Sequence record: SRR31156797_8894
DNA: 34,835 nucleotides
Direction: 5' to 3' (one strand)
In this document: piece after piece, positions 4,038-34,835 of the stretch
How the letters are laid out: each line of letters starts with the position of its first letter
How positions within the stretch are numbered: the first letter of the stretch is position 1
Program-made: the position numbers and the translations under genes
The notes under the pieces: model-generated
Seen by the model: the letters and a program-made list of their open reading frames with translations, nothing else
The model's database searches: none
Told to the model about the DNA's origin: nothing

Positions 4038-4065
4038 ACGGCTTTCGTATTTCTCAAATTATCGT

Positions 4066-4100
4066 ACCCCGGTTGTCCTTGCTGACAGCCGGGGTTTTTT
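4066..4100 (+). terminator. Rho-independent terminator
   Basis: ACCCCGGTTGTC-cttgct-GACAGCCGGGGT stem followed by a T tract, just after the 4037 stop. Confidence 0.8.
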
Positions 4101-4108
4101 ATGTTGGG

Positions 4109-4138
4109 TTGACCCATTTCCCCCACATCACGTAGTAT
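4109..4138 (+). promoter_or_regulatory. Putative sigma70 promoter for the second REC-TPR gene
   Basis: TTGACC-18 nt-TAGTAT between the terminator and the GGAG-preceded ATG at 4190. Confidence 0.5.
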
Positions 4139-4189
4139 GGAATTGGTGAGGATCAGCCGCAGTGTACTGAGTCAAAAATTGGAGAGAGC

Positions 4190-17240: not shown

Positions 17241-17430
17241 GGGGTTACTCCTTTATTGTATGTTGACAGACTTGGGCGGTCTGTTGACGCCGTAATGCAA
17301 CCTGAAGAGTACAGAAAAAGGTACTCTTTATGCGAAGAGAAGGGGGGAAGGGATGGATTGGACGGAAGGGTAGTGTATATATATTACCGTCTGAAAATGC
17401 CGATCTTTGTCGGTCAGACAGTCTTATTAA

Positions 17431-17608
17431 TCCCCGGGGTGCCGTGTCGTCTGTTTGTTTTGAACCTGGCATTTCCAGGTGGGCATGACTCGTGAACCTT
17501 TAGGCTTCCCGGTTAAACCGGGCTTGCTCACCAGCTCACTGGAGTCGTCGCCCTTTTACAGAGTATTGGCTCAATAACACTCCAGACAATCACGCACGCC
17601 CCAGGGGT
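17431..17608 (-). ncRNA. ssrS: 6S RNA
   Basis: About 178-nt rod whose ends pair (CCCCUGGGGCGUGCGUG…GUCUG / CAGACGACACGGCACCCCGGGG), with UGAGCC…GGUUCA stem elements flanking a central bubble; canonical position downstream of zapA. Confidence 0.88.
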
Positions 17609-17653
17609 AATTCCTTTCCGACCTCGGCCCCGTCCAATTATCGGCACAGGCGC

Positions 17654-19505: not shown

Positions 19506-19718
19506 TATTTTCTCCGTGTCTTTTGTTTCAGGCACGATCACTCTCAGTGCAATCAATCGGAGGATAATTTACCTGCTAGAAGTGAAAAGGACAAGAACCG
19601 TTTGCGAAATCCCATCAAGTTGTTTTTTTATGAAGAAACAGTCAACAAAAGTGATAAATCGAAGCCATTCAATATTTTGTCTATGAATCAAGAGGGGCTT
19701 GAATTGCCGGAGGTATTG

Positions 19719-21677
19719 CTAGTACGCCAATCGTCCCAGAGATTTCATGATGAGCGTGCATCCCATGGCGAACATACCGGTCAGTCCCATACCGCAGGAA
19801 AATCCGGCTAGCAGGACTGGCGCGTAATGCCGCCACTCTTTCCCGTATTTTTTTAAGAAATAGAATCGCCCAAGCAGCGCGCCGATCACTTCAAGCAACA
19901 TGCCGTGCGGCGTTGATTGCCCCAGACCACGCACCACACCGTAGACGAGTAGCACAGGGAGTCCGAGTACGTTCAGCACCGAGTACATGATGAGTCCCAA
20001 ACCAAGACCTGACAGTACAATAGGACCGGACAACGCCTCGAAAAAGAGTGAATTGCCTTCCAAGGTCGAGGTCTGCATGAGCAGGGTGTTCAGTGCCTGC
20101 AAGTGCCATAATTCTTGAGCAAACGGATATTCCGGAGACGGGATGGGTGCCAATTGCCACAGAAATTGTGAAAATAACAGTGATGACACCATGACGATAG
20201 GGAAGACGATGATTTCCGCTTTGATGATTCCGCGCAGGCTTGTTCCGGTCAGTTCGATCTGACGGAATTGAACCGTGGCCTCTCCATAGTTGTGAATGGG
20301 AATGGGCGCGTACCAGATTTCAAGACCTTGATAGCCGAAGAATTTGGCGCCGGCGATGAATGAGAATTCTCGCACCATGGGCAGTGCGATGAACTGACCG
20401 GCTACACCTTCCATTCGGGCTGTGATGTACGAGATTATTGGCGTGTAGATGAAACCGTACAGCACGAAGAAAATCCATGGGAACGATGGCACCAGCCAGA
20501 CGCAGAATGCGATGTAACAGAGTGTTGAAAAAACATAGATGCCGATGGATACCCAGAAGTTGATGTCACCACGGCCTTCAGGTGGATTGAACAGGGCTGA
20601 GAAATCCAGCCCTTTACCATCCGTATTTCGGAATGATTTGACCACATAATAGATACCCACCGCGCCAATGGCCAGCCCCAGTCCGATACCGAAGCTCATG
20701 TAAAAATCGAAGTTGTTGGCGAACACTGTCTCAACGGTTGCCATGCCCGGATGCCAACGGTGCAGGACTCCATGTGAATACAGGATCGGGTTGGCGATGA
20801 TGGTAATGATCAGACCAACCAGCCCGCCAATGACCGCCCAGAACGGCAGGACCATGCCGATAAACACCAGTCCCAGATCGAACTGTATACCCGTTGCCAC
20901 TGCGGGCAAAAGGTCTTCGGTATGCATGGTCAATTCAATCCATGGAATGGGAATCAGCCGGATTGGTTCACTGAACAGCAGCCCTGAGAGTGCAGGCAAT
21001 AAGACATAGAAAAATCCGAACGCCAGTCCGATGACTCCGCCGATGGAAAACACCCGCCATTTCCAACCGGTCTTTTTATCTTCGGTGGATTCGGCCAGAG
21101 CCATGGTACCGAGTGCGCCAACCGGGGCCATGGGAAAGGGCAGCTTTTCCACGTCCGAAGTGATGCGATACAGAGAATATCCCAGCCCGAAGTGGTCGAT
21201 GCGCTGCACCAGTTGTGCGCCAACCAGCAGCATGATTGGCACCAGCCAGTCCGGGTGCATGAATGTGCGTTCCAGATATGACCCTGACCCCAGAGCCGGG
21301 GCTATCCAGTGCGGAATGAATTCGGTCAGTCCCAACATTCTCGCTGCGTCCGACTGCACGAGATACTGGTTCCACAAAAGGCCTTGGAATGGCGAAGCCA
21401 GTGCTGCGCCAGCCATATAATAAAGAAGGAAAATTTCTTGTTGTTTTAGGTGGGTGTATGAGCGTTTTGCAATCTCTGCAAAGAGGATGATCGTTACCCA
21501 GCGGGCTGCAGGACCGATGCCTTGACCAATGACGAGTTGCAAATACATAGACCCCGGCATCATCAGGAATCCTATGAAAATGGCACCAACTATCGTCTTC
21601 CAATCAAACCCCTCCTCGAACTTGTCGGGGGGCTTCATTAAGTCACGATACTCTTTCAGTTCTTTGTCGTCATACAT
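19719..21677 (-). CDS. OPT-like (oligopeptide transporter superfamily) polytopic membrane protein
   Basis: About 16 hydrophobic segments; EKLPFPMAPVGA motif; C-terminal APVLLAGFSCGMGL resembling OPT 'ASGL.aG' ends; start at ATG 21677 behind GGAGG. Confidence 0.65.
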   Translation of the reverse strand: MYDDKELKEYRDLMKPPDKFEEGFDWKTIVGAIFIGFLMMPGSMYLQLVIGQGIGPAARWVTIILFAEIAKRSYTHLKQQEIFLLYYMAGAALASPFQGLLWNQYLVQSDAARMLGLTEFIPHWIAPALGSGSYLERTFMHPDWLVPIMLLVGAQLVQRIDHFGLGYSLYRITSDVEKLPFPMAPVGALGTMALAESTEDKKTGWKWRVFSIGGVIGLAFGFFYVLLPALSGLLFSEPIRLIPIPWIELTMHTEDLLPAVATGIQFDLGLVFIGMVLPFWAVIGGLVGLIITIIANPILYSHGVLHRWHPGMATVETVFANNFDFYMSFGIGLGLAIGAVGIYYVVKSFRNTDGKGLDFSALFNPPEGRGDINFWVSIGIYVFSTLCYIAFCVWLVPSFPWIFFVLYGFIYTPIISYITARMEGVAGQFIALPMVREFSFIAGAKFFGYQGLEIWYAPIPIHNYGEATVQFRQIELTGTSLRGIIKAEIIVFPIVMVSSLLFSQFLWQLAPIPSPEYPFAQELWHLQALNTLLMQTSTLEGNSLFFEALSGPIVLSGLGLGLIMYSVLNVLGLPVLLVYGVVRGLGQSTPHGMLLEVIGALLGRFYFLKKYGKEWRHYAPVLLAGFSCGMGLTGMFAMGCTLIMKSLGRLAY

Positions 21678-21916
21678 CCAAGATGCCTCCGGCCCCCCCA
21701 TCCCTCTATTTTCCTGAACTTTATATCGCGCCTTTGGCGAAATTTGGTTGAGGCGGGGAGCCGTGCTTTATATCGTTTAAGTAATCTTTATCTTATTTAT
21801 TACATCTGCGCGAAATCGTACACGAACTTCTTAAGGCCCTCGGCCTTAAGCCGCCAGAGGCGAAATCACCTATCAAATCCGCCGACAGGCGGTCTTACCT
21901 TTCCTCATTCCCGCCA

Positions 21917-23923
21917 CTACAACGGGAATACATTATAACTTTGTTCGTTGAACAATCCGATCATGGCCCAGAAACCACCCATCAGGAAATCGCCGAGTAT
22001 GAGTCCTATGAACAGGAAACGGACTCGATTGAACAGACTGGTCCCGCCGTAATGCAAGACTAGATGGTTACACATCCAGCCGAGGAAGAATGGGAACCAG
22101 AGTATCTTCATACCAGCCGAATAAGCGGCCAGGTAGCCGAGCGGATGCAATGGCCACCATGGGAATTTATAATAGCAGAAAATCAAGATGAACATGGCGA
22201 GCGCGCCGAATCCGGCATAGGTGATGAGCCATTCGTTGGGGCCGGTGGGTTGGTCCACGAGTCGCTGTGCATTTTCGTAGTTGGCGAGCACAGTCTGTGT
22301 AGCCCAATCAAGATTGAGTTCTCTCAGGCCGTATTTGTAGCCGAGATAGAGCATGGTCACGAACGCGGTGACGAGTGCGAGCACCAGAGATAGGCCGATG
22401 GCAACGAGTACGAGGTTGCGTTTCGGGGTTTCCTGTCGAATCTTTGAGCCGTGGAAAAGTGTTGGCGCAATGGCCTCACGCACGTCGAGGAACAGGACTT
22501 TTTGCATGACAGCGGTGGCTGCCACACCCACGGAACCGAAAAAGCCGGTGCCGAACAGTCCCATAAGACCATCAGATGGCGCGGCAGTGAGTGTGAAATA
22601 TGGCAGTCCACCCTGACAGACCAGACGGCTGGTCACCAGTGTGACGATAAGAAATGCGCAGGGCAGGAGTACGGCGGCCAGAAGCGGGAGGCCGAACCAC
22701 CAGCCCCAGGCCATGAGAAAGATCATGCCGATAAAAAGTCCCCAAAGCGGCCATATGGGCGGTCCCCATTCGTCGGGGATCGTGTCGAATTTACCTTTTC
22801 CTTCCAATTCAGTGCTGTGGCAGGTCGGGCGCAGGAAACAGATGAAGGTTTCCTTGAGGTGATGTCGAGCCAGCCAGATGAGGAAGATGAAAAAGATGGC
22901 GTATGCGCCGATCACCTGTGCACCTTCGGGGCGGGCAAGGTCTGGACCGAAGGTGGTGCCGAGCGCGGCTTCGGGAAGCTGCCACCCGAGGATGTAGAGG
23001 AGTCCGAAAAGCAGTCCGGCCATGAGATGAAACACCCACATGGAAAAGGATATCTGGCGGGTTGTCAGGAAAGCGAATCCGATAAACGCCGGGATGATGT
23101 AGAGTTTGAGTTTGTAGAAACCGGAAAAAAGACCGAATTTGGGGAAATATGACCCGGCCAAAATGAGTGTCGGTATCTGCGGGACGGATGGGTAATAGAA
23201 TTGCAGCCCGTTGATGAGGTGCAACGCTCCGGCCATGGTCAGTCCGATGAGCAGATAGTTGTTGGACCACCATGAAATGAATTGTTTCTGGTCCAATGCG
23301 TCTCCCATGATTATGGGGACGCTCACCATCGGGAAGTGGACCCGTTCGTTAACAACCCACTGGCGGCCGAAAAGGGTCATCAGGCAGATCATGACGAAGA
23401 AGGAGCCGAGAATGAACAGTGACCAGACGAGCAAAGTGGGCAACCAGACACCCCATGGGATGGCTGACAGAACTGCGGCGACACCCATTTCGTTGCCGCC
23501 GTCCAGTCCTTCGAAAAACAGGCTGACCGCTTCGGTTGATTGCGGGAACCATGATTGCGGCAGAAGCGGCGTCAGGACTTCGGTCCAACGATAGGCATCC
23601 TTGGCAAACCGTTCTGGGGCCGTGATGTTGATGAAAAAGGTTTCGGTGAGACCGGCAAAGCCGATAGCCGTGAACAGGGCCATCATCAGCCATATAACGA
23701 GCAGTTCAACCCCGGAAAAGAATGGCGGACGTTTGCTGAGTCTGGAGGAAAAGGCATCGAACACGAACAACCATGTTACGATGAAGAATGGGGCCATGGG
23801 GAAATGCCCGCCGCCCATGGGCGTGTTGTGCAGGACCGTGTTGTTCAGCGGCGTGAAAATACACAAGGTTAGGCCAAGGAGCAGGCCGGTCAGGAGCGCG
23901 CGGAGGCGGAGTCGTCCGTTCAT
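21917..23923 (-). CDS. Large polytopic membrane protein (DUF6785/DUF6784-like, OPT-related)
   Basis: About 16-17 TM segments; QW…ERVHFPMV, FPWWPLHPLGY, Y.G..L…R.LFIGLILGDF motifs; ATGA overlap with the upstream giant gene. Confidence 0.65.
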   Translation of the reverse strand: MNGRLRLRALLTGLLLGLTLCIFTPLNNTVLHNTPMGGGHFPMAPFFIVTWLFVFDAFSSRLSKRPPFFSGVELLVIWLMMALFTAIGFAGLTETFFINITAPERFAKDAYRWTEVLTPLLPQSWFPQSTEAVSLFFEGLDGGNEMGVAAVLSAIPWGVWLPTLLVWSLFILGSFFVMICLMTLFGRQWVVNERVHFPMVSVPIIMGDALDQKQFISWWSNNYLLIGLTMAGALHLINGLQFYYPSVPQIPTLILAGSYFPKFGLFSGFYKLKLYIIPAFIGFAFLTTRQISFSMWVFHLMAGLLFGLLYILGWQLPEAALGTTFGPDLARPEGAQVIGAYAIFFIFLIWLARHHLKETFICFLRPTCHSTELEGKGKFDTIPDEWGPPIWPLWGLFIGMIFLMAWGWWFGLPLLAAVLLPCAFLIVTLVTSRLVCQGGLPYFTLTAAPSDGLMGLFGTGFFGSVGVAATAVMQKVLFLDVREAIAPTLFHGSKIRQETPKRNLVLVAIGLSLVLALVTAFVTMLYLGYKYGLRELNLDWATQTVLANYENAQRLVDQPTGPNEWLITYAGFGALAMFILIFCYYKFPWWPLHPLGYLAAYSAGMKILWFPFFLGWMCNHLVLHYGGTSLFNRVRFLFIGLILGDFLMGGFWAMIGLFNEQSYNVFPL

Positions 23924-26900
23924 GCTGCCCCCTCTTCGTCGTTCAGTTCTTTTGCAATGGTTCGGTTCATGTCTTTAGCGTAACTGTCCACGGCTTGGTC
24001 ATCCAGAGAACGCCATGCCAGCAGTTGTTTGCGGAGGTCATTGAGGAAGTTCCTGTTCAGGTTTTCCCACGCCTTGTGCTCCCCAGCCTCACGGTGAAGG
24101 ATGACTTTGATCTGCCGGAATCCGGTGTAGAGGTCAGACGGGCAGAATACGAGTTTCACTTTTTGGCGTACCCCGAAATCGAACGGAGCAAGCCAGACGC
24201 GCAAGTCCATGGAAAAGCAGAGATCATCAGGGATGGGAATATCTTCGGACACACCGCTGACAAGGCCGGTGTTGGCCTCGACTTGTTCGAGGTCCAGGAA
24301 GTTGCATTGCATGTCATCGGTACAGAACGCGCCATGCGAGACATCGTGATGGGCCATGTAATATTCGTGCAGGAATCCACCTGCGGAGTTGATTTCACGG
24401 AGTTTGATAAGGAAAGGCAGGATTACAACCAGTTCGTTGCCTTTGGCTTTGGGCATGCTCCATGATTTGTTCACGTCCGGGATGGCGATATTGGCCGCGA
24501 CTTTAGCCGGATAGATGGCTGAGATGAGTACCACGCCGATGACCAGAATCATGGCGGCTACACCGGCGGTTGAAGAATAGTTGGCGGTCATGCCAGCCCA
24601 GAGCGGTGTTCCGGCGAGGAATGCCGAAGATATCTGGGCCAGAAGATAGCCGACCACCACAGAAATGACAGCAAAGGCGAGTGCTTCTGCAATGAACAGG
24701 AAGGCTACGTGCGGTGGAGCCAATCCGACCGATGTGTAGACTGCGATTTCCGGTTTGCGCTCATAGACTGAACCGATCATGGTGTTGAGTACGATCAATA
24801 TGGAGATGCCGAGGGGGATCAGGATGTTGGCCATGCCTGAATAGTTGACGGCGTCGGATGCGAAATAGAGCGAGGTGCCGTTTGGACCGCCCCGGAACAA
24901 GAGCATGCCGAATCGGTCGCCCATGTCGTCGGTTTGAGCAAGAGTGGCGTTGTCCGGTTTGACGGCGATACCTTTGAGTCTGCCAGCCCTGAGAGACAGC
25001 AGCATTTCGGCTGGCATGAGTATGGTTTCCGAACCGGGGATGTGTTGGTAGCGGGATTCGGTAGTGACCACATCTTCGCCGTTTTCAATGGCTTCGGCTT
25101 CAACTTCGGACAATTGGGTGGCTGCCTGATTGGGGAAGATGATGGGCGTTATGGGCTCGCCGTCGAGGTCCGGGTGATCGTTCAACCCTTCATCGCTGAA
25201 AACGCCGACAAGGGTGATTTTGGCTCCCCACGTTATGAGCGTATTGCGTTCGGGGTCGAGCGGGTCTGCGCCTAACTGATTCGCCATGCGTTCGGACAGC
25301 ATGACGACATTACGTTCGCCTTCCTTGAACCAGCGCCCCTTGATCAGAATGCGATCCAGTCCACTGACTTGCGGTTCGAGATAAGAGAGCCCCACCAGAC
25401 CACGAGCCTGTGCGGTTTTGTCGCCAAGGGAAATCGGGATGAGCGGTGCGCGGGATTTGTCCGCCGTGAAGCCGGTGTCATACCATGCACGGGGAGCGAC
25501 AACGCCCTTTCCGGCAAAGGCTGTTTCCACCACAGATAAGGCTTCTGCGGGGACATCCTGCCAGTTGAGATATTTGAGCATCAGGCCGGAGTAGGAGGCT
25601 TTGTCGCTGAACTGTGCCCACCCTGCCTGTCGCACGGATTTAACCGTGGTGAAGTTCATGATGGTGAAGGTAAGGATAACCAGCGTGGCAAAGGTCAGGA
25701 ACGTGCGTACCGGGCGGCGTTTCAGGTTGCCCACACCGAGCACAAAGGCCGCACCGAATGCAGCGGCAGGGCTAATGCCAGTCAGCTTGATATGGGCTGA
25801 TCGCTTCTGGAGTTCCACCATTTCACGCTCGAATCGGAAGAATATGATGAGCGACACCAAAAGTGATAGCGCGAGAATGAAGAACGCGAGTATGACCACC
25901 ATTGGTGAATAGGTCAGCTGGAAAGCGGGGTGGACGAAATAGACCACACCGATGATCAGCGTCAGGAACCCGAGGAAAGCGACAATTCGTTTTTTGATAT
26001 CCACGAATGAGAAAAAGAGTCGCTCCATGCAATAGGCGAACGGCACAAACAGGGCAACATAGAAGAGTACGCCGATGAGGACGTCTTTTTGGGTCTTGTC
26101 CACATCGTTGTACACCCGGCTTGCCTTGGATAGGGAGGCTCTCGCTGCTTCAACAAATTTATCCCATTGCTTTTCGGTTTTGAACTTTCTGGCTTGAGCC
26201 AGTTCTTCATCTCCTTGTCTGCGCAGGTCCCGGATGCGTTCGTTGATGATGCCTTTCTGTTCCAGATTGTCGATGCGCGGACCGATCAGTCCCCACATGT
26301 CTATGGCTGCCTGAAATTCTGTCATGGGTATCACCGGCCACTGACGAGCAATGAAGCCGAGTCCCTGCGGATGGTCTTCATCCGTGTTCAGAAGCAGGAC
26401 CTTTTTATCCAGTACCGTGTCGGATAATGTAAGTTTGATGGGAGTATCCGGCTCAAGGAACAACGTACCCAATGTGGATTTGCGTGTGTCCATGCGGCTG
26501 TACCAATAGCTGACCGGCGGGGCTTCGGTGCGGCCATCAATAAGTGTGGGCCGATAAAGAAATTTGAAGGTCCGCGGGTCGAACATATTGAACAGCGTGG
26601 TCTGGGTACAACTGAAAAGGATAAGATCCGTTGCCTGCACGTCCCGTTTCAGCTTGATACGATACGCGGACTTGCCGGTTTTGGGCTTGTCGATGGCCCA
26701 ATCCGCCAGCCCTGACAGTTCATTGAATTTGAACGCTTCAACAACAGCCTTGTGATAGCTGACTTTCTTGTTGGCGAGGCCGGGAATGCGGAAATTCCCT
26801 TGCGTGTCGACCATGCCGTAGTTGCGGGTTTGCCATTGGAAGGCGAGAACGACCATGCCTGTTCCGGGCCTGTCCGGGAATATTTCACCTTTTCTGAGGA

Positions 26901-28797
26901 GATTGGCGCGTCCTTCAATGGTGACGAAGCGGTTTTTGTTCCGTTTGCCTGCATCGGCGATTGGGTCATTGGCCAGAGCGTCGAGCAGGGATGTCACAAG
27001 TGTGGTCTGTTGAGCCAGAAAGTCGAAATCAACACGGTCAACCGTGTCATAGGGCGTACCCCAGGCGGGACGGACATCGTGCACTGTTGCCAGAGTCAGT
27101 CCGGGGAATCCGGCCAGTGCCATGGGTTCACCACCCAGTTCCGGGGTGTCGGGCAAGTAACTTTGCCATGCGCGTTTTCCCGGACGCAAGGTGTCGCTGA
27201 AAAGTTTTGCGACATCGTTGTTTGATATTTCAAGTTTTTTGACGGCATCCTTCATGACCGTATCCAAAGGGCGGAAAAATGCGGTTCGATTGATGGACGG
27301 TTTGAGGTCGATGAGCCATCCCTTGTCGAATCCGCCAACACCGTTACCGTGGCTGGACAAGAAGAGTGACACATGGGCGGCAATGGGAGATTCGCCGATG
27401 GTTTTACGCAGTTTCAGGGCTGAGTTGACGTCTTTGAGTTGACCAGTGACGTCTTTAAAAATGGCTGTTTCATGGGCAGTAGCCGGTTGGATGAAGTTTT
27501 TTAACGCTGTGCGCTCCATGTCGGAGAGCGGGAAGTCGGCAGTACTGGAATTGATCCAGTTGAGCCGCTTTAATGTCATGCGTTCATGGGCCAGATATTT
27601 GATACGCTGCTGGTGTTTTTCTTTGGTGTCTTGCTGGGCAAGCAACCGCAGTCGCATCAGTTCTTTGGTTATATCATCTTCCTGATTGCGAACTACAGCC
27701 TTGAAAGCGGCCTTGAGCAGAAAACGATCACTCTCGTCTGCCAGATTTGTTTCGGAGAGAGGGACATCACTGCCGAGCATTTGCAGGGTGCGGTCCGTGT
27801 CGTGAACCAACTTTTCCAGTGATTCTTTGCGCTTGTTGAGGTGTTTTTCTTCGGTGGCTAGTGCCCATGTGAATTCACGCATGCCGGCCTGTGCCGAAGC
27901 CTTGCCGGCAGTGGCAACGAGAAGAACGGACCGTTTGGGTGTGTGTGTCGCGAATCCTTGAGCCGTATCCATGAGCGCGGTGATTGAGGATGCTTCGTCA
28001 GCCCCCGGCGCATGGCCGTCCACCAATGCGGTGGAGTCATAGAAAGTTTCAATGATGATGGTTTGCTTGGAAAGATCGGGGTCGCTGCCTTGAATATGGC
28101 AATATATCGTGTCTGCGGCGACATTGCGCCATGCCGCTTTTGCCGTCAGCCGTGTGGTGCCGAGGTGTTTGGGACCTTTTTGAGTGAATCCGGTGCCGAA
28201 CAGGGATTCGGCCTTTTCACGGGAGAGCCAAAATGTAGGAAAGTCTATTGGAGTTTGCTCGAATTTGTATTCGAACAAAGGCTTGGGTGCGTGTCCGCCA
28301 TCTCCACCGCGCCCGATGAATACCAGACCTCGTGCGCCGAGCATGGCTGCATTATTCCAGTTTTTACCGGAATCCATGTCCATGAGAACAATGGAACCTT
28401 GCACACTTAGTCCGTTGAAGTCAGAAACTCGGCCTTGTCCGACATAGATGAGCGGGCCGTTGATGCCGGGTGGCATGACGGCTCCAGGAGAGAGCGCATT
28501 GATTTGTAATTGCCTGAGTTCTACAGTCTGCCCAGATTCTTCAAAGGTCAGATGTGCTCCCATTTTGACGGGAACAGGGATGTGGAATGACTGGCGTCCT
28601 ACAGTTGCGTTGGGCAAAATCTTTTTGAATTCGGCTTCCACCATGTCTGCGGCTTTGGCAGCACCGGGGGTGCCGAGAGATCGGTCTTCAAGAGAGCTGA
28701 GCTGGCGCAGGAAATCCACGCCGTTGGCACGGGCCGGGAGCACTGTCGCCATAATCATGGCGAGACAGAGCAGGAAACGCAGTCCGATACGCGCCAT
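23920..28797 (-). CDS. 1625-aa fusion: signal peptide, PA domain, degenerate M28-peptidase-like domain, beta-sandwich, TM bundle, MacB-type periplasmic domain and FtsX permease
   Basis: Signal peptide …PARA; PA 'GPLIYVGQG…GSIVLM…AAMLGARGLVF'; M28-like 'FYDS…APGADEASS'; MacB 'GRWF…VVMLSERMANQLG'; FtsX 'LNTMIGSVYERKPEIAVYTSVGL…FIAEAL'. Confidence 0.8.
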   Translation of the reverse strand: MARIGLRFLLCLAMIMATVLPARANGVDFLRQLSSLEDRSLGTPGAAKAADMVEAEFKKILPNATVGRQSFHIPVPVKMGAHLTFEESGQTVELRQLQINALSPGAVMPPGINGPLIYVGQGRVSDFNGLSVQGSIVLMDMDSGKNWNNAAMLGARGLVFIGRGGDGGHAPKPLFEYKFEQTPIDFPTFWLSREKAESLFGTGFTQKGPKHLGTTRLTAKAAWRNVAADTIYCHIQGSDPDLSKQTIIIETFYDSTALVDGHAPGADEASSITALMDTAQGFATHTPKRSVLLVATAGKASAQAGMREFTWALATEEKHLNKRKESLEKLVHDTDRTLQMLGSDVPLSETNLADESDRFLLKAAFKAVVRNQEDDITKELMRLRLLAQQDTKEKHQQRIKYLAHERMTLKRLNWINSSTADFPLSDMERTALKNFIQPATAHETAIFKDVTGQLKDVNSALKLRKTIGESPIAAHVSLFLSSHGNGVGGFDKGWLIDLKPSINRTAFFRPLDTVMKDAVKKLEISNNDVAKLFSDTLRPGKRAWQSYLPDTPELGGEPMALAGFPGLTLATVHDVRPAWGTPYDTVDRVDFDFLAQQTTLVTSLLDALANDPIADAGKRNKNRFVTIEGRANLLRKGEIFPDRPGTGMVVLAFQWQTRNYGMVDTQGNFRIPGLANKKVSYHKAVVEAFKFNELSGLADWAIDKPKTGKSAYRIKLKRDVQATDLILFSCTQTTLFNMFDPRTFKFLYRPTLIDGRTEAPPVSYWYSRMDTRKSTLGTLFLEPDTPIKLTLSDTVLDKKVLLLNTDEDHPQGLGFIARQWPVIPMTEFQAAIDMWGLIGPRIDNLEQKGIINERIRDLRRQGDEELAQARKFKTEKQWDKFVEAARASLSKASRVYNDVDKTQKDVLIGVLFYVALFVPFAYCMERLFFSFVDIKKRIVAFLGFLTLIIGVVYFVHPAFQLTYSPMVVILAFFILALSLLVSLIIFFRFEREMVELQKRSAHIKLTGISPAAAFGAAFVLGVGNLKRRPVRTFLTFATLVILTFTIMNFTTVKSVRQAGWAQFSDKASYSGLMLKYLNWQDVPAEALSVVETAFAGKGVVAPRAWYDTGFTADKSRAPLIPISLGDKTAQARGLVGLSYLEPQVSGLDRILIKGRWFKEGERNVVMLSERMANQLGADPLDPERNTLITWGAKITLVGVFSDEGLNDHPDLDGEPITPIIFPNQAATQLSEVEAEAIENGEDVVTTESRYQHIPGSETILMPAEMLLSLRAGRLKGIAVKPDNATLAQTDDMGDRFGMLLFRGGPNGTSLYFASDAVNYSGMANILIPLGISILIVLNTMIGSVYERKPEIAVYTSVGLAPPHVAFLFIAEALAFAVISVVVGYLLAQISSAFLAGTPLWAGMTANYSSTAGVAAMILVIGVVLISAIYPAKVAANIAIPDVNKSWSMPKAKGNELVVILPFLIKLREINSAGGFLHEYYMAHHDVSHGAFCTDDMQCNFLDLEQVEANTGLVSGVSEDIPIPDDLCFSMDLRVWLAPFDFGVRQKVKLVFCPSDLYTGFRQIKVILHREAGEHKAWENLNRNFLNDLRKQLLAWRSLDDQAVDSYAKDMNRTIAKELNDEEGAA

Positions 28798-28800
28798 GGG

Positions 28801-29571
28801 TTAGGCCTTTTCCTTGCCGTTTGTCCGGCCAGTGAGTTTGTCGTCGATACCGCCGACGGTGATATCCAGTTCTTCACGCCGCTCCACGCGATCCACTTGG
28901 CCGTCGCGTACCCAGATTACCCGGTCAGAGACATTGAGCATCTTATAGTCATGGGTGGCGGAAATGATGGTCACGCCACGTTCCACTGAGAGCATCTGCA
29001 GCAGTTCGATGATTTCTTCACCCGTGGACAAATCGAGGTTGCCGGTCGGTTCATCCGCCAGAATGATGGATGGATCATTGGCCAGCGAACGAGCGACGGC
29101 CACACGTTGTTGTTGTCCGCCGGATAATTCCAGCGGCTTGTGTTGAAAGCGTTTTCCCAGTCCGACCAGTTTGAGCAGTTCAATACCCTTGTCTTGCGCA
29201 TCGTCCGCATTCATCCCGGCAAAGGTCATGGGCAGGGTGACGTTTTCAAGCGCGGTCATGACCGGGATGAGATTGAAGGTCTGAAATATGTAGCCGATCT
29301 TGCGGTTGCGGAGCCATGCCAATTCAAAGGCGTCCAGTTGGGAAATGTCCACTTCATCAATGAACACCTTGCCGTCTGTGGGTTTGTCCAGCCCGCCGAT
29401 CATGTTGAACAGGGTGGATTTCCCTGAGCCTGACGGACCCATGATGGAGATATATTCTCCGGCGAATATTTCCAGATCCACGCCTTTGAGCGCCTGCAAT
29501 TCGACCTTTCCCATGGTGAAGGTCTTTGTGACGCCGATGACGCGGACAATGGTACGTTTTTCTTCGCTCAT
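28801..29571 (-). CDS. ABC transporter ATP-binding protein, LolD/MacB/FtsE type
   Basis: Walker A GPSGSGKST, FQTFNL, LSGGQQQR, Walker B IILADEPT, ATHD. Start reassigned to ATG 29571 (MSEEKRT) behind AGGA. Confidence 0.95.
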   Translation of the reverse strand: MSEEKRTIVRVIGVTKTFTMGKVELQALKGVDLEIFAGEYISIMGPSGSGKSTLFNMIGGLDKPTDGKVFIDEVDISQLDAFELAWLRNRKIGYIFQTFNLIPVMTALENVTLPMTFAGMNADDAQDKGIELLKLVGLGKRFQHKPLELSGGQQQRVAVARSLANDPSIILADEPTGNLDLSTGEEIIELLQMLSVERGVTIISATHDYKMLNVSDRVIWVRDGQVDRVERREELDITVGGIDDKLTGRTNGKEKA

Positions 29572-29579
29572 ACTATTCC

Positions 29580-30251
29580 TTAATGTTCTGCGCGTATCGC
29601 ATTGATCGGTTCCATACGTGCCGCCAGCAGGGCTGGATACAGGACACCAAGCAGGCTCAGGAGACAACCGGCCAAAGTGGCAATGCCTACCGAACCGAGC
29701 ATGGAAAGAATGGAAAGGTCGTGAATTGCCGTGAATCCGAAACGAATACTGTTTGTCAGGAGAGAGACAATGCCTCCGAGAAGTGCGCCGACACTTGCCC
29801 CGGCCAACCCTTGCATGGCTGCTTCGAGCAGAAAGATGCGCAGGATCATTGAATCCAGTGCGCCGAGACATTTCATGACACCGATTTCAGAAAATCGCTC
29901 AGTGACGGACATGAGTTGGGCGTTAATAATGCCTACAGTACACACCAAGAGGGAAAGAATGACGATCCATCGTTCCTTGGCAGACATTGTGACCACACTC
30001 TGCGCCGCATCCACATCGTATCCCGCCTGAAGCAATGCTCGGGCTGCGTGTTTTCCACCGTGTTCAAGCAGTCCTGCCGCTATATCTAAATTAACCAGCA
30101 CGAAACTCAGGAATGAAACGGCAAGCACCAGGCTTGAGACCGTGATCATGGAACGGAAGAACCGAACCTTCAGGCTCTTGAAGCTGATCTCCACCGATTT
30201 GGAGAAGGGAAGCGAGATAAGGCGGTCAACCTTTCCTGCGGGAATGTTCAT
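29580..30251 (-). CDS. Minimal FtsX-like ABC permease (4 TM)
   Basis: RFFRSMIT N-terminal helix/TM1, GIINAQLMSVTERFSEIGVMKCLGA, YPALLAARMEPINAIR; very short periplasmic loop. Confidence 0.88.
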   Translation of the reverse strand: MNIPAGKVDRLISLPFSKSVEISFKSLKVRFFRSMITVSSLVLAVSFLSFVLVNLDIAAGLLEHGGKHAARALLQAGYDVDAAQSVVTMSAKERWIVILSLLVCTVGIINAQLMSVTERFSEIGVMKCLGALDSMILRIFLLEAAMQGLAGASVGALLGGIVSLLTNSIRFGFTAIHDLSILSMLGSVGIATLAGCLLSLLGVLYPALLAARMEPINAIRAEH

Positions 30252-30366
30252 GCGTATCCTTCGAATTCACTGATAAATATTCAATTCCTCCCATAGTAGG
30301 CCCAACCCGCATCCATGACAAGGATAAATGGACCGCAAGGGGGTGATTTTACGGAAAAGACTGATT

Positions 30367-31140
30367 TTATGGGGTATCGAATCGGCGAAGTTTTACGGTG
30401 GGGTGGTTTGCCACATGCGAAAGGCAGGTGTCGAGAAAGTCCATGGCCGCCTGATTCATGCGTTGATGATGGAGCATGACCCCGACACGTCCTGTCTGGA
30501 TGGCTTTCTCGAATTCTTTGGTAAGCGCGTCCCATCCTTGGGCTGGATCAGCTTCGTTTCGGGTGTGCAGGTCAACGTTGATGGGGATGTCCGGTAAGGT
30601 ATCGGGAAGTGGAACTTTGCGTTGCTCTCCGGCAGAACGGGAGACGCAGGCGTAGCTGAGTTCGATCAGAGCCTCGCCTGTTTGTGCGTCGAATCGATTC
30701 CACGGTGGAGTGAATGCCGGGTAGAAGGATTCCCCCATGATCGAGTTTAACCGGTCGCGTCCCCTTTTCAGGGCCTGTTTCTTTTTGGAGGCAGGACGCT
30801 GATCGCCGAATTCCGAGTTCTTGCCCGAGGTTTGGTGGCTGCGATGCTGCCAGCCGTGTTGATGCCAACAGAAGACCGGGCTGTTTCCGGCCCAATGTAT
30901 GAGGATATCCCAACGGGCCTGCGTGAGCCATGCCGGAGTGACGGCCATGTGGAGGGGGATGTTATACTTAACGAACAGGTCCATCATTTGATGGCAGTTG
31001 TTACTGGGAACGGCTACGTCATCGGCACGAAAGAATATTTCCGTTCCGGCCGGGGCTGTGTCGAGCAAATGGCCTATTCTTTGTATTCCGTCCGTAGACG
31101 GGGTGAGCCATAGCGATGAGATATGTGTTTTGACGATCAT
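30367..31140 (-). CDS. Polysaccharide deacetylase (CE4/NodB-like) family protein
   Basis: FFRADD, HQHGWQH, FTPPWN and VMLHH motifs of the CE4 fold; no signal peptide. Confidence 0.82.
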   Translation of the reverse strand: MIVKTHISSLWLTPSTDGIQRIGHLLDTAPAGTEIFFRADDVAVPSNNCHQMMDLFVKYNIPLHMAVTPAWLTQARWDILIHWAGNSPVFCWHQHGWQHRSHQTSGKNSEFGDQRPASKKKQALKRGRDRLNSIMGESFYPAFTPPWNRFDAQTGEALIELSYACVSRSAGEQRKVPLPDTLPDIPINVDLHTRNEADPAQGWDALTKEFEKAIQTGRVGVMLHHQRMNQAAMDFLDTCLSHVANHPTVKLRRFDTP

Positions 31141-31146
31141 GAGGGA

Positions 31147-32706
31147 TCAGGACTCCACGCCTTTGATGACCACCAGTGTGAGGTCGTCCTCGCGAAAGTC
31201 CGACCCGGAGAATTCAAGTACCGCGTCACAGAGTTCTTTCATGATGGTTTGTGCGTCTTTGTCATTGTTTTTTCGAATGATTTCACGGATGCGGTCGCCG
31301 CCGAACATTTCTCCGGCGGGGCTGTGCGCTTCCCATATGCCGTCAGTACAAATGAAAATGATTTCACCTGGCCCAGGCAGGTTCATGGTTTTTTCGTGGA
31401 ATTCCCACTCTGATTCGACTCCCAGAGGGATGTCTGCGCCTCTCAGTTCCGTGAACGTGTCGGTTGCCGGGGCATAAACCAAGGGTTGTTGATGACCTGC
31501 GTTGACCCACGTTGCGGTTTGTAATGTCGGGTCCATGACCATAAAAAATAAGGTCATGAATCGGCCTGTTTCACCGATGTCATGCGTTAAATGTTTGTTG
31601 GCCCGCGCGATGTTTTCCGTGGCCGATCCTGGCGTTGCTGCATTCTGTCGGATCACGGCCCGCCCTGCTGTCATGAGCAGGGCTGCGCCGATACCATGAC
31701 CGGATACGTCGCCTACGGCAACAGCCAACTGTCCGCATGAATCCAGATCGCATTGGATGAAATCGTAAAAATCACCGCCGGTTTCGTCCGAGAAAAGACT
31801 GACACCCGCGATATCCAGTCCCGGAAAATTGGGTTGCTCGGACGGCAGGAAATGTTGCTGGACCTCCTTGGCGATGAGGAGTCCTTCGCGCATACGGACA
31901 CCTTCACGCAGTGCGCCGATCATGGCGTTTGTATGCCCGGCGATAACGCCGAGTTCATCCGAAGTGGTCACGGGGACGCGGCGGGTCAGATCGCCTTGTG
32001 CTATGTTTTCAAGGACCATGGTTTCCGTGTTGAACAACAGCCGAAGGTTTTTGGTATAGGAAAAGATCAGGTTGACCACCATGATGAGCAGAAAGGCCAT
32101 GATGAAGATTATTTCAAGCAGGACCGAGCGGTTTAAAAAGCCCACGGCTGACATGGTGAGTTCCTGATTCGCCAGCCATTGCACGTCACGGATGATAACC
32201 AACAGAAGAATGGAAGTGATTAAACAAATGGTCAGGGTGGCCACAAAGGAAAATTTGCGTGTCATGGGTTTCAGTTTATGCGGAGGATCATAGTTGGCTT
32301 GACCCGCTAATGCGGTGTTGATGACAGTACGCTCTCGCTCAAGAGCGAGGTCCAGCCCAGCGAAGAAGCCGATGGTGAAAATCCCTAGCGCCAGTTTAAG
32401 ACCACTTTGCAGGATGGGAAAGCGGTAGCCGAATTGCAGGATAAGGGCGGCCACCAGCCCCGCGCAAAGGAACAGGAGTAGGTCCAACCGAAATTGGAGA
32501 AAGGCCTGCCGGATTTGCGGGGCGGTTTCGATCATCCTTTTTTGGATGATTTCGCGGACAAGATAGGCTGTTGCCATGGGGACAAGAATGACCAAACCAA
32601 GCTCCCAGACCGGGAGCCGTATCATGAAAGGTCAGACCCGGCCGCCATATATGGCCCCGCCAAGCACGGCGAGCAGGTAATAGGCCAAAGGCCGGATGGC
32701 GGACAT
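31147..32706 (-). CDS. Membrane-bound HAMP + PP2C/SpoIIE (RsbU-like) phosphatase; candidate selenoprotein (Sec25, TGA at 32634-32632), 519 aa with read-through
   Basis: Intact PP2C motifs (GGDFYD, GDVSGHG, NAGH, TDGIWEA, DDLT) and HAMP domain. The frame continues upstream of ATG 32625 through TGA to ATG 32706 (MSAIRPLAYYLLAVLGGAIYGGRV-U-PF), which has an AAGGGA RBS. A SECIS-like hairpin follows the TGA. Confidence 0.85.
32589..32634 (-). promoter_or_regulatory. Putative bacterial SECIS element
   Basis: mRNA UGACCUUUCAUGAUACG-GCUCCC-GGUCU-GGGAGC-UUGGUUUGGUCA: 6-bp GC stem with a G-first GGUCU loop 20 nt after UGA; UGACC/GGUCA can form a lower stem. Confidence 0.75.
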
Positions 32707-32842
32707 TGTCTTTCCCTTCTGCATTCAAACCGGTCCTTTTTTGTCTTCTATCCCTTTGCCAAGAGGCACGATCTTGTTTAATCATAAGTCAGTGTCCACC
32801 TCGTGGACAAGTCTTAATTCTGAAAAAGGCAGCGTCAAACCG

Positions 32843-33460
32843 ATGAAAAAAAAGTGCATGATTATTTGGGCAGCAATGATTTGCTCCGTACTGTTCTTTG
32901 GAACACCGGCTGTGGCCGGAGATGATTTCCCTACATCCCTTGCGGGGTTTTCTTTGGGGGATAATGTAAAAAAATATGCTGACTATTGCCACTTGGAGAA
33001 GGCTGTTCCCGGTTCTGACGCACCGTTTTTGAGTGAAGCCGTCATTAAGTCCGATGTCCTTCCGGGTGTTCGGGGGGGGAGCCTGATCTTTGGTAATTGC
33101 GACCACAAAGATGAACTTGTCGGTATCAAGTTGAAATTTCATGACCGCGGTAAAGGACTTTTTGACAAGTTGTACAAACAGTATGAGAAGAAATTTGGTG
33201 AGCCTGACAACTATGTGGGTGATGCTTTTAAGAATGTCATCGCATGGCAGTGGGTGTTCAAGAATGACAGCAAGGAAGAAGTCGCTCTGGTGCTTATGTG
33301 GAGTCGTAGCCAGCAGATGCGCCCCGGCGTTTCGATCAAGCTGACGCACAAAACTCGCGTGAAGCAGGAGTTGGATTGCTATTTGGCGATGGATAACGAC
33401 AAGAGTATGAACGGAAAGAAAAGCCGTATCAAGTCTCTCGATCAATACATCCCTCACTAG
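32843..33460 (+). CDS. Secreted/periplasmic protein of unknown function
   Basis: Start reassigned to MKKKCMIIWAAMICSVLFFGTPAVA/G (classical signal peptide); soluble mature part with three Cys; 2 nt from the next gene. Confidence 0.75.
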   Translation: MKKKCMIIWAAMICSVLFFGTPAVAGDDFPTSLAGFSLGDNVKKYADYCHLEKAVPGSDAPFLSEAVIKSDVLPGVRGGSLIFGNCDHKDELVGIKLKFHDRGKGLFDKLYKQYEKKFGEPDNYVGDAFKNVIAWQWVFKNDSKEEVALVLMWSRSQQMRPGVSIKLTHKTRVKQELDCYLAMDNDKSMNGKKSRIKSLDQYIPH

Positions 33461-33462
33461 GC

Positions 33463-34380
33463 ATGGCTGAATATCTTTGGAATGGTCTGGGTGTCGTCGC
33501 GCCTGACGAATGGGAACCTGCCGCCATCGAGCGGGACGGGTTGACTCTTGCCGAGGGTGGGCAGCCAGTATGCGAACTTAAGTGGAACCGCATTCGCGGT
33601 TCCTTTTCTTTTGAAAAACATATCAAGAAGCTCACCAAAGGCCACAAAGGAGCGGCCATAAGCGGTGTGGCCGATGAGGAAACTCCTCCAGCTTGGAATG
33701 ACGCCCTGAAAATATTAGCTGAATCCGGTCTCCGTTCTCAGAGCTTTATTTGGCAGGCTTCCGGTGTACGAGGCATTGGCGCAACCTTGCATAATCCCGG
33801 TACCGGACTGGCCGCGCTGGTGCAGTTTTTTATCCGTGCCGAGTCCGATGAAGATCGGGCCGCCAAGGTGTTGGCTTCACTTCGTGATTATTCGAGCGGC
33901 AAAAGTCTGCCATGGACCATGTTTGGCGTCACAGCACGAGTTCCGGCAGAGTTCATTCTCGACACATTTTCGTTTCAGCCTGGGCATTATCGTGTTCAAT
34001 ATTGGCGGCCAAAATCCGGTAAAATGTCAGAGCGTGTTCCGCCGGGGAAAGGGCCGGGAACCCAGCTTACGTTTGAACGATTTGCACCGGCTTCGGTTCT
34101 GCTGCGACACACCGGTCTGGCTGAATGGATAGCCGAGACCGTAAAAGAAACACCTGAAGTCGAGGCTTTTGCCGGTCAATCGTCGAGAGTCGCGTGGAAC
34201 AGTGCCCTCAAGACATCGTTACTTCGCAAGACATTACGGCGTGAGGTATATTCTCAAGGGCGGGCTTGGACGACTGAAACAGGGAACGCCATCCTTTCTG
34301 TGTGTGCGTCGGGGACAGTCCCTGCACCTGAAATTTTGTTTGCCGATATTTGTGGGAGTTACGCTCTTGTTCAAGAATAA
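33463..34380 (+). CDS. Hypothetical cytoplasmic protein with a probable internal two-fold repeat
   Basis: 305-aa ORF tightly coupled to both neighbours; 'WNGLGVVAPDEW' and 'MFGVTARVPAEF' open two similar halves. Confidence 0.7.
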   Translation: MAEYLWNGLGVVAPDEWEPAAIERDGLTLAEGGQPVCELKWNRIRGSFSFEKHIKKLTKGHKGAAISGVADEETPPAWNDALKILAESGLRSQSFIWQASGVRGIGATLHNPGTGLAALVQFFIRAESDEDRAAKVLASLRDYSSGKSLPWTMFGVTARVPAEFILDTFSFQPGHYRVQYWRPKSGKMSERVPPGKGPGTQLTFERFAPASVLLRHTGLAEWIAETVKETPEVEAFAGQSSRVAWNSALKTSLLRKTLRREVYSQGRAWTTETGNAILSVCASGTVPAPEILFADICGSYALVQE

Positions 34381-34744
34381 ATCGACAGAGCCTGTCATTT
34401 CGCGCGCCGAGGCCCTGAATATGGTCCCGGTGAAGAATAGGGCCGTGGAAGAGACTGCTTTGCCTGATGGTTTGGTGCGGTTGGCATATCCCTTGGCGAT
34501 AAAACCGTGGTTTGGACGGTTGGCTGAAAAGGTCGGTATGTGGGACAAGAAACCCATGATCAAACAGGTTGAACTCGATGAACTGGGAGCGTTTGTTTGG
34601 GAACGAATCGATGGCGAACGTTCTGTTCAACAGATTGCCGCAGAGTTGGCATCATTTTATGAAGTGCAACCACGCGAGGCCGAGTTGAGTGTGACTGCGT
34701 TTATTAAAACGATTGGTCAACGAGGGATTATTGGGTTGAAATAG
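34367..34744 (+). CDS. PqqD-family / RiPP recognition element (RRE) winged-helix protein
   Basis: ELDELGAFVWERIDGERSVQQIAAEL…AELSVTAFIKTIGQRGII is the PqqD pattern; TTG start at 34367 behind GGGAG, overlapping the previous stop. Confidence 0.85.
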   Translation: MFKNKSTEPVISRAEALNMVPVKNRAVEETALPDGLVRLAYPLAIKPWFGRLAEKVGMWDKKPMIKQVELDELGAFVWERIDGERSVQQIAAELASFYEVQPREAELSVTAFIKTIGQRGIIGLK

Positions 34745-34761
34745 TTTTTTTTGGACGTCTC

Positions 34762-34798
34762 CCAATCAGCCTTTGGCTGATTGGTCATCTCTTTTTTT
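34762..34798 (+). terminator. Terminator-like hairpin after the PqqD gene
   Basis: CCAATCAGCC-ttt-GGCTGATTGG followed by a pyrimidine/T-rich run. Confidence 0.6.
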
Positions 34799-34835
34799 AT
34801 AGAATGCGTTGCGTGCATCCGCAGTGAAAATGCAA

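Follow-up and report, generated by a model that had tools for sequence, protein, structure and literature searches.

Which substrate is handled, and in which direction, by a set of envelope genes that places an ATP-binding cassette (ABC) motor of the MacB/FtsX type beside a giant fusion protein with a peptidase-like ectodomain, two OPT-like carriers and a PqqD/RRE-fold protein? The question is raised by positions 19719 to 34744 of sequence record SRR31156797_8894, a stretch of 34,835 nucleotides that is called, at its full length, the window. A first-pass annotation had read this locus as one machine for the capture, processing and translocation of peptides, glycopeptides or proteins. We find that five of the genes, listed below, form a core that is inherited as one unit, that the envelope system is real, widespread and undescribed, and that the invariant partner of the core in Desulfobacterota is a glycan-synthesis and export module, which the annotation had overlooked. 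The reading that we favour, while granting that it may well be wrong, is that the core carries out periplasmic capture and re-uptake (recycling) of a self-made envelope glycan or its fragments.

19719..21677, minus strand: OPT-like polytopic carrier 1, 652 aa (660 aa from 21701), the most conserved component
21917..23923, minus strand: OPT-like carrier 2, DUF6785 plus DUF6784, 668 aa (Pfam E 4e-139 and 9e-34)
23920..28797, minus strand: giant fusion protein, 1625 aa (Pfam PA and FtsX)
28801..29571, minus strand: LolD/MacB-type ABC ATPase, 256 aa (Pfam ABC_tran E 2e-33)
29580..30251, minus strand: small FtsX-type permease, 223 aa (Pfam FtsX E 4e-15)

Genome comparisons drew on 301 Desulfobacterota, on a second sample of 151 Desulfovibrionaceae, and on metagenome loci taken from the best 80 of 559 hits, mostly of Desulfobacterota type and some of them redundant. 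The gene for carrier 1 (the OPT-like gene) picks out 19 of the 301 genomes, spread over 11 families, and the giant picks out exactly these; DUF6785 is present in all 19. Among metagenome loci with at least 9 kb of upstream sequence, the giant and DUF6785 genes occur in 30 of 30, and all four partners in 28 of 30. Co-occurrence in neighbourhood and presence profiles was the check that the first-pass annotation had proposed for its own grouping, and the components do co-occur. Atlas look-alikes are commonest in Planctomycetota, Lentisphaerota and Armatimonadota, with archaea in addition for DUF6785, few members carrying a taxon.

The recurrent neighbours of the core are sugar enzymes (two COG4671-type glycosyltransferases, two GT4s, a histidine phosphatase and a deacetylase), together with an 840-aa ABC exporter, a cyclic nucleotide (cNMP)-binding protein and a PP2C/RsbW/STAS set. 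By a profile built partly from six of the 19 core genomes, every one of the 19 has two COG4671 genes; of the 282 others, none has two and three have one. A RedA-like gene is present in 53 of 53 Desulfovibrionaceae with the core, as marked by carrier 1, versus 1 of 98 without it (G323, discussed below). The exporter, beside which no membrane-fusion partner is encoded, occurs in 19 of 19 core genomes versus 0 of 3 others, and in a second set, hand-picked from earlier lists, in 22 of 22 core versus 0 of 42 non-core genomes. Three genomes (G037, G372 and G327) show a single co-directional run, RedA-RedB-GT4-phosphatase-COG4671-deacetylase-FtsX-ATPase-giant-DUF6785-OPT, and in G037, G372 and several metagenome loci the deacetylase is flanked by FtsX and a COG4671 gene. 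In G001, the genome nearest to the window, the glycan genes and the core are scattered over the chromosome (3.26, 3.44, 3.57 and 3.61 Mb), yet all are retained. This co-inheritance with glycan enzymes makes the handling of a glycan more likely than the processing of peptides.

Several variants of the module were seen in passing. Manganitrophus records (L055, 11890-26198) hold the same glycosyltransferase set with APH-type kinases, an alginate lyase and an alginate-export porin, and L190-L192 show related variants that have a single COG4671 gene and fusions with APH or GT4-ABC. A gamma-PGA hydrolase-like gene lies upstream of the cluster, with DUF2064-GT2 downstream, in one family (L042, 17125-17760; L044, 2709-3323; L045, 2644-3306); gamma-PGA hydrolase and DUF2064 neighbours are limited to few families.

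The core-linked glycosyltransferases match a cluster found on 265 plasmid records, mostly rhizobial. The match in Sinorhizobium meliloti 1021 begins at 837144, which is the start of SMb21264 (redA) in Data Set S1 of PMC10128002. According to that paper, nine genes within smb21252-smb21271 are needed for the surface polysaccharide PPP, which protects against phazolicin and is chemically uncharacterised; orthologs of the PPP genes are cited there from an Agrobacterium pyocyanin screen. In the same data set, protection depends on the genes for PPP synthesis and export (log2FC about -3.5 to -5.4) and not on SMb21260-62, which are without fitness effect (-0.41 to +0.43, adjusted p 1), as would be expected of a salvage importer. 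Proteins of G001 or the window match six of the nine PPP genes, SMb21264 (RedA), SMb21265 (RedB), SMb21266, SMb21252, SMb21253 and SMb21269, at 24-40% identity, SMb21253 being assigned by position as the gene directly after SMb21252. RedA, RedB, the second COG4671, the second GT4, the deacetylase and the ABC exporter are all encoded in G001; the window itself holds the deacetylase only, which matches SMb21253 at E 3e-19, and a second G001 paralog is closer (E 2e-46). We take red to stand for resistance to detergents, a meaning that our literature search did not confirm and in which redA and redB drew no match.

Transport is where the two clusters part. The rhizobial cluster with the same exporter type holds an Opp-type ABC importer between the lyase gene and redA (SMb21260-63, by position). 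Carrier 1 and the giant match no plasmid record, rhizobial chromosomes lying outside that search, and the binding protein of the Opp-type importer finds only two short matches in 22 genomes, with no full-length relative in the 19 core genomes among them. Because the same exporter type is paired with the Opp set in rhizobia and with the core in Desulfobacterota, the core may be a functional stand-in for the Opp importer. The Opp set comprises a receptor, two permeases and an ATPase; the core has its dead-peptidase receptor, its pair of OPT-fold carriers and its MacB motor. Beyond the six gene counterparts, the two settings share a nearby cNMP-binding protein and a membrane signalling enzyme. 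They differ in that rhizobia hold the Opp-type importer, a lyase and an adenylate cyclase, whereas the Desulfobacterota genomes hold the FtsX/OPT core, the histidine phosphatase and the PP2C/RsbW/STAS switch.

The motor of the core is a type VII ABC system by fold, and is neither MacAB-TolC nor LolCDE. The translated ATPase has Walker A, signature, Walker B and H-loop motifs all intact; its best NCBIfam model is LolD, at 230 bits versus a cut-off of 307.75, and the LolC/E model scores 51 bits versus 362.45. The small FtsX protein has four transmembrane (TM) helices by hydropathy and, with TM1 (31-63) running straight on to TM2 (91-117), no periplasmic domain. Because the NCBIfam cut-offs are missed and the small FtsX protein has no such domain, the system is not LolCDE, and no MacA/TolC, LolA or outer-membrane partner recurs among the neighbours, nor does the window encode a periplasmic adaptor. 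Like MacB, LolCDE, YtrEF, YbbAP, FtsEX and BceAB, the core has a LolD-like ATPase with intact motifs and, in the giant, a permease of four TM helices whose periplasmic domain lies between TM1 and TM2; like LolCE, it uses two different FtsX-type subunits. Unlike these systems, it includes an FtsX subunit without a periplasmic domain, its giant adds about 900 periplasmic residues, three TM helices and a cytoplasmic tail, and it is tied to two OPT-fold proteins.

The giant begins with a signal peptide, followed by an M28 pseudo-peptidase with a PA insert (about residues 25-615), a beta domain of transthyretin type (about 625-730), another beta domain, a bundle of helices, three extra TM helices (about 903-991) that are among its best-conserved regions, a complete MacB-type permease with its periplasmic domain (about 1010-1440) and a cytoplasmic alpha/beta tail. 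A structure model of residues 615-1625 (pLDDT 78.8, pTM 0.63) matches MacB, LolCE and YtrF (Foldseek MacB 5gko E 1.5e-11; YtrF Z 16.0). The tail finds only a middling KA1-like match (Z 8.5), and a profile search with its alignment returned nothing significant from the PDB. The transthyretin-like domain matches the BOS chain 9c7v_B (Z 8.7, rmsd 2.2, 83 residues aligned) and carboxypeptidase D (Z 9.1). In profile searches the outer domain matches the M28 aminopeptidases 2ek8 (E 9e-14, profile residues 4-291) and 6hc6, which bears out the pseudo-peptidase named in the first-pass annotation. Alignment with 2ek8 shows the metal site to be lost: His is replaced by F252, the Glu-Glu pair by K299-A300, the fourth ligand by F479 and the last His by G580, and the bridging Asp (D267) is the sole ligand retained. 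Similar losses occur in 30 relatives, and the domain is, judging from its residues, catalytically dead. Transferrin receptor, nicastrin and nicalin likewise use a dead M28 fold as a membrane-tethered ectodomain (weak profile matches, E 0.003-0.02), in the transferrin receptor also with a PA insert; the giant, in contrast, is closer to active bacterial aminopeptidases and is fused to an ABC permease, and its loss of catalysis is probably independent of theirs. In one Pseudodesulfovibrio-type genome (L009) the giant carries a frameshift near residue 175.

The two carriers of the first-pass annotation are, by sequence comparison, diverged paralogs and distant relatives of OPT. In the family of carrier 1, 21 of 61 aligned members match PF03169 OPT (E up to 0.01, best E 1.3e-17), its Atlas neighbours carry OPT, and one DUF6785 relative matches OPT at E 9e-6. 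Profile comparison aligns carrier 1 with the DUF6785 protein over the full length (probability 94%, E 1e-7, 561 columns, 15% identical). Profile searches with both alignments found no significant solved relative in the PDB. Median identity to metagenome relatives is 79% for carrier 1 versus 47% for the giant. Size, polytopic hydropathy and a PF03169 match in about a third of the carrier 1 family are shared with the OPT/YSL family, which we take to be TC 2.A.67 and whose characterised members are, to our knowledge, importers; the differences are two diverged paralogs in place of one gene, linkage to an ATP-driven motor, and window proteins that miss the Pfam model. When carrier 1 was modelled, without alignments, as a complex with the tail of the giant and its extra TM bundle, the score was 0.01, which is evidence neither way.

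A large insertion close to the C-terminus (beta-propeller or PDZ) is present in some relatives of carrier 1 (P0242, P0246, P0252, P0265 and P0266), which reach 860-1080 aa, and hints that domains for ligand binding were added. Labels reading DUF2064/GT2 that overlap the OPT-like gene are a shadow-frame artefact of the reference set and were disregarded, except in L091 and L139.

The remaining genes of the locus lie between or across from the core:

30367..31140, minus strand: polysaccharide deacetylase-like protein, 257 aa (Pfam DUF2334 and Polysacc_deac_1), a member of the glycan module, unnamed in the first-pass annotation
31147..32625, minus strand: MASE10-HAMP-PP2C (SpoIIE) membrane phosphatase, 492 aa (Pfam), a recurrent regulatory neighbour
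32843..33460, plus strand: accessory A, secreted, 205 aa from the likely start, with a hydrophobic N-terminus
33463..34380, plus strand: accessory B, cytoplasmic, two tandem PsbP/Mog1/DcrB-fold domains, 305 aa
34367..34744, plus strand: accessory stand-alone PqqD/RRE-fold protein, 125 aa (Pfam PqqD E 2e-12)

All genes named in the first-pass annotation are intact open reading frames in the window translations, and the coupling that it described stands. With the ATPase start set at 29571, the gap from the FtsX stop to the ATPase start is 8 nt, that between ATPase and giant 3 nt, and the giant and DUF6785 genes share a 4-nt overlap; the OPT-like gene follows the DUF6785 gene, as described, after 239 nt with its likely start at 21677 (215 nt with a start at 21701). 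The opposite arm is indeed a coupled plus-strand trio ending in the PqqD/RRE gene, A and B being 2 nt apart and B overlapping the RRE gene, with its TTG start at 34367, by 14 nt. The description of the system as divergent holds for the window, although the arms are separated by the deacetylase and phosphatase genes, both part of the conserved neighbourhood, and the two-arm layout is confined to Pseudodesulfovibrio; elsewhere A-B-RRE usually lies downstream of the OPT-like gene and co-directional with it. The window comes from a Pseudodesulfovibrio-like genome. Since G001 matches it at 98% over the region and a single contig of an independent run covers 19688-34835, the locus is no assembly artefact. 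One metatranscriptome yields contigs, most of them about 90% similar, over parts of the genes for the giant and for DUF6785, weak evidence of RNA from which strand, level and operon structure are unreadable. Promoter and terminator scans came out near chance level (10 versus 10.9, and 24 versus 17.1 +/- 4.3). REP-like dispersed palindromic repeats, with many G001 matches at 80-100%, lie at 21820-21893, between the DUF6785 and OPT-like genes, and at 34741-34835. Between the same two genes, two Pseudodesulfovibrio-type genomes have an insertion of about 1.6 kb (L003, 16881-18538; L009, 16832-18512).

Accessory B and full-length relatives of the RRE protein occur in the same 9 of the 19 core genomes and in no other sampled genome, leaving out of the count one marginal B match in G126 (E 6e-4, containing a stop), and therefore belong to the system, yet as optional parts. 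The generic part of the RRE protein alone is matched in 20 further genomes. In metagenome loci with at least 7 kb downstream (35 loci), B is found in 23, RRE in 24 and A in 18. Accessory A has two invariant cysteines in its alignment and no Pfam, NCBIfam or PDB match. The model of accessory B (pLDDT 90.2) matches PsbP 2xb3 with its first half (Z 12.0, rmsd 2.8, 131 aligned) and Mog1 1jhs with its second (Z 10.8, rmsd 4.3, 142 aligned); its alignment found nothing significant in the PDB by profile search. The RRE protein reaches 47.9 bits against Pfam PqqD (cut-off 23.4), yet falls below every NCBIfam cut-off for a class of peptides made on ribosomes and modified after translation (RiPPs). No RiPP-modifying enzyme (radical SAM, YcaO or similar) recurs among the neighbours, and with an RRE present and no recurrent modifying enzyme the locus is, by the features examined, not a RiPP cluster. 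Single cases of radical SAM genes are one adjoining a RedA-like gene in G001 (L177, 8180-9394) and one with SPASM, divergent from RRE, in G025 (L048, 2828-3769). Relatives of the MASE10-HAMP-PP2C protein with the same architecture adjoin the cluster in six metagenome loci, together with STAS, RsbW-like and cNMP proteins. Genes for the latter three recur in 20-22 metagenome loci, PP2C genes in 5-6, and RsbW-STAS lies directly downstream of the OPT-like gene in G372 and G327. The PP2C/RsbW/STAS switch has its own membrane sensors (MASE10, dCache).

From the gene content, folds, lost active site and co-inheritance, which are directly visible, we infer a ligand, a direction and a physical contact between the parts, as follows. 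The two COG4671 GT-B enzymes, the two GT4s, the phosphatase and the deacetylase, all found as genes, would make a small glycan or glycoconjugate that corresponds to PPP. The 840-aa exporter would move it to the periplasm, a role suggested by SMb21269, where it would act as a barrier. The M28/PA fold of the giant may bind the glycan there as a tethered receptor, the use to which transferrin receptor and nicastrin put this dead fold. The ATPase dimer and the heterodimer of giant and small FtsX would deliver a periplasmic mechanical stroke, the established mechanism of MacB and LolCDE, releasing the ligand or passing it on. The two OPT paralogs, probably as a heterodimer, could then carry the glycan inward. 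A, B and the RRE protein may be optional adaptors, the PP2C/RsbW/STAS and cNMP proteins may regulate the cycle, and the core is probably an older general device for oligomer uptake, recruited to the glycan in Desulfobacterota. In its full form, the proposal amounts to a transporter class of its own: a MacB-type motor would drive a tethered pseudo-peptidase receptor, which passes ligand to a physically attached OPT-fold heterodimer, replacing the binding-protein importer of rhizobia and completing a cycle of synthesis, export and recapture of a widespread protective envelope glycan. In this form it is unlikely, and more doubtful than recycling as such.

A number of points weigh against glycan recycling. 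Direction and substrate of the core rest on analogy, and PPP uptake by the rhizobial Opp importer is itself presumed. All MacB/FtsX systems known to us work outward or at the envelope, and there is no case among them of uptake being driven via a carrier separate from the motor. The window proteins of carrier 1 and DUF6785 have no Pfam OPT match, and in G195 and G075 the OPT-like gene lies away from the gene for the giant. The genomes are related, so the co-occurrence counts are not independent. Up to 10 kb of flank around five divergent metagenome loci with the core (OPT-like protein 47-50% identical) contains no COG4671 gene, while some of these carry B and RRE, and the glycan tie may therefore be limited to Desulfobacterota. 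A PPP lyase, nucleotide-sugar dehydrogenase or FkbM-like protein is encoded in none of 20 glycosyltransferase loci, to which this search was confined, one weak dehydrogenase match in L221 aside; with three PPP genes unseen, the product would differ from PPP. Lastly, G323 has the sugar enzymes without the core, and in its place an HlyD-type adaptor and two other ABC exporters, a replacement that fits an outward role of the core equally well. In G323 the same sugar module is thus accompanied by transport genes of a third kind; the G323 locus (L216/L217, G323:C1:1535000-1547000) reads RedA-RedB-phosphatase-COG4671-deacetylase, then the HlyD-type adaptor, the two ABC exporters and a methyltransferase.

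That outward role is the strongest of the alternatives to glycan recycling, though still improbable. LolCDE places lipoproteins by extracting them from the inner membrane; on this model the core would place an exported or lipid-linked glycan, by membrane extraction or attachment to an envelope acceptor, with the OPT pair returning a carrier or by-product. The COG4671, RedA and exporter co-inheritance speaks for it as much as for recycling, as do the LolCDE-like heterodimeric motor, the gene content of G323, and GT-C-type genes beside some clusters (PMT in G135 and G271, YfhO in L070). These GT-C genes are sporadic, however, the outer-membrane and LolA-type partners sought above do not recur, and S. 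meliloti makes protective PPP with a homologous exporter and no core on that replicon, its chromosome lying outside the search. Capture and uptake of peptides, glycopeptides or proteins, with sugar genes that merely share the island, appears less probable again. It would suit carriers of the OPT superfamily, a receptor derived from a peptidase, and the RRE and B genes of divergent lineages without COG4671 in the fetched flanks. But genomes with the core retain the sugar genes even where these are scattered over the chromosome, which hitch-hiking fails to explain; the M28 site is dead, and RRE and B were not found in 10 of the 19 core genomes. With a catalytic site lost, RRE and its partner in 9 of 19 core genomes and no recurrent RiPP-modifying enzyme, the argument of the first-pass annotation from three independent peptide modules to peptides is not supported: it was right that the genes form a unit, but probably mistaken as to peptides, at least in Desulfobacterota.

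Three further alternatives to recycling have little probability, in descending order. The motor and OPT pair might monitor the glycan as an envelope sensor and signal through the PP2C/RsbW/STAS switch or the cNMP protein, much as in BceAB-BceS. The recurrence of STAS, RsbW-like, cNMP and PP2C genes in the metagenome loci, the placement of RsbW-STAS in G372 and G327, and a rhizobial adenylate cyclase in a comparable place fit this idea, against which the switch has membrane sensors of its own, and two full carriers conserved at 79% would exceed what sensing needs. A pathway of two separate units, in which an FtsX-type motor bearing a receptor domain and an OPT heterodimer work independently and form no physical machine, is a little harder to credit: it would account for the unlinked genes of G195 and G075 and for the 239-nt gap with its dispersed repeat, but not for the 4-nt overlap of DUF6785 and giant, their joint presence in 30 of 30 metagenome loci with at least 9 kb upstream, or the conservation of the three extra TM helices. 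Least credible of all is a complex for membrane-protein biogenesis or quality control like nicalin-NOMO (BOS). A transthyretin-like domain behind an M28 pseudo-peptidase (nicalin E 0.003) recalls that complex, and the PsbP/Mog1 fold of accessory B also serves in chaperones. Active bacterial aminopeptidases nevertheless score far better than nicalin, carboxypeptidase D fits the beta domain as well as the BOS chain does, the distribution is patchy and dispensable (19 of 301), and the sugar enzymes are left unexplained.

Literature searches on DUF6785, on COG4671, on Desulfovibrio with OPT, FtsX and PqqD, and on FtsX, M28, OPT, DUF6784 and type VII combinations returned no description of the core in freely readable text, consistent with the failure of the first-pass annotation to recognise a described pathway, and no precedent was found for the coupling of secondary-carrier folds to a type VII ABC motor. 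In the accessible part of PMC10533852, the G20 gene Dde_0728, annotated like carrier 1, appears only in expression tables; in similarly partial sources, other neighbouring G20 tags occur in omics tables without comment on the system, and the accessible RRE-Finder text has nothing on OPT-linked RREs. A motor-carrier machine, if true, would widen the known roles of both superfamilies, and the present results give DUF6785/DUF6784 a first functional lead. The PPP link gives the core a candidate ligand and a checkable phenotype, an envelope barrier against antimicrobials, and about a third of the sampled Desulfovibrionaceae (53 of 151), judged from their genes, would make a PPP-like glycan. A tractable host probably exists in Oleidesulfovibrio alaskensis G20, a named protein of which is 83% identical to carrier 1.

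Elsewhere in the window, an Rfam scan found 6S RNA only, at 17427-17610 on the minus strand, between zapA and rny and outside the locus described here. Two tandem receiver-TPR proteins with degenerate receiver domains are encoded at 2703-5647 (plus strand), and an autotransporter with a short passenger domain lies at 10103-12196 (minus strand), between a Vut_1 gene and tyrS.

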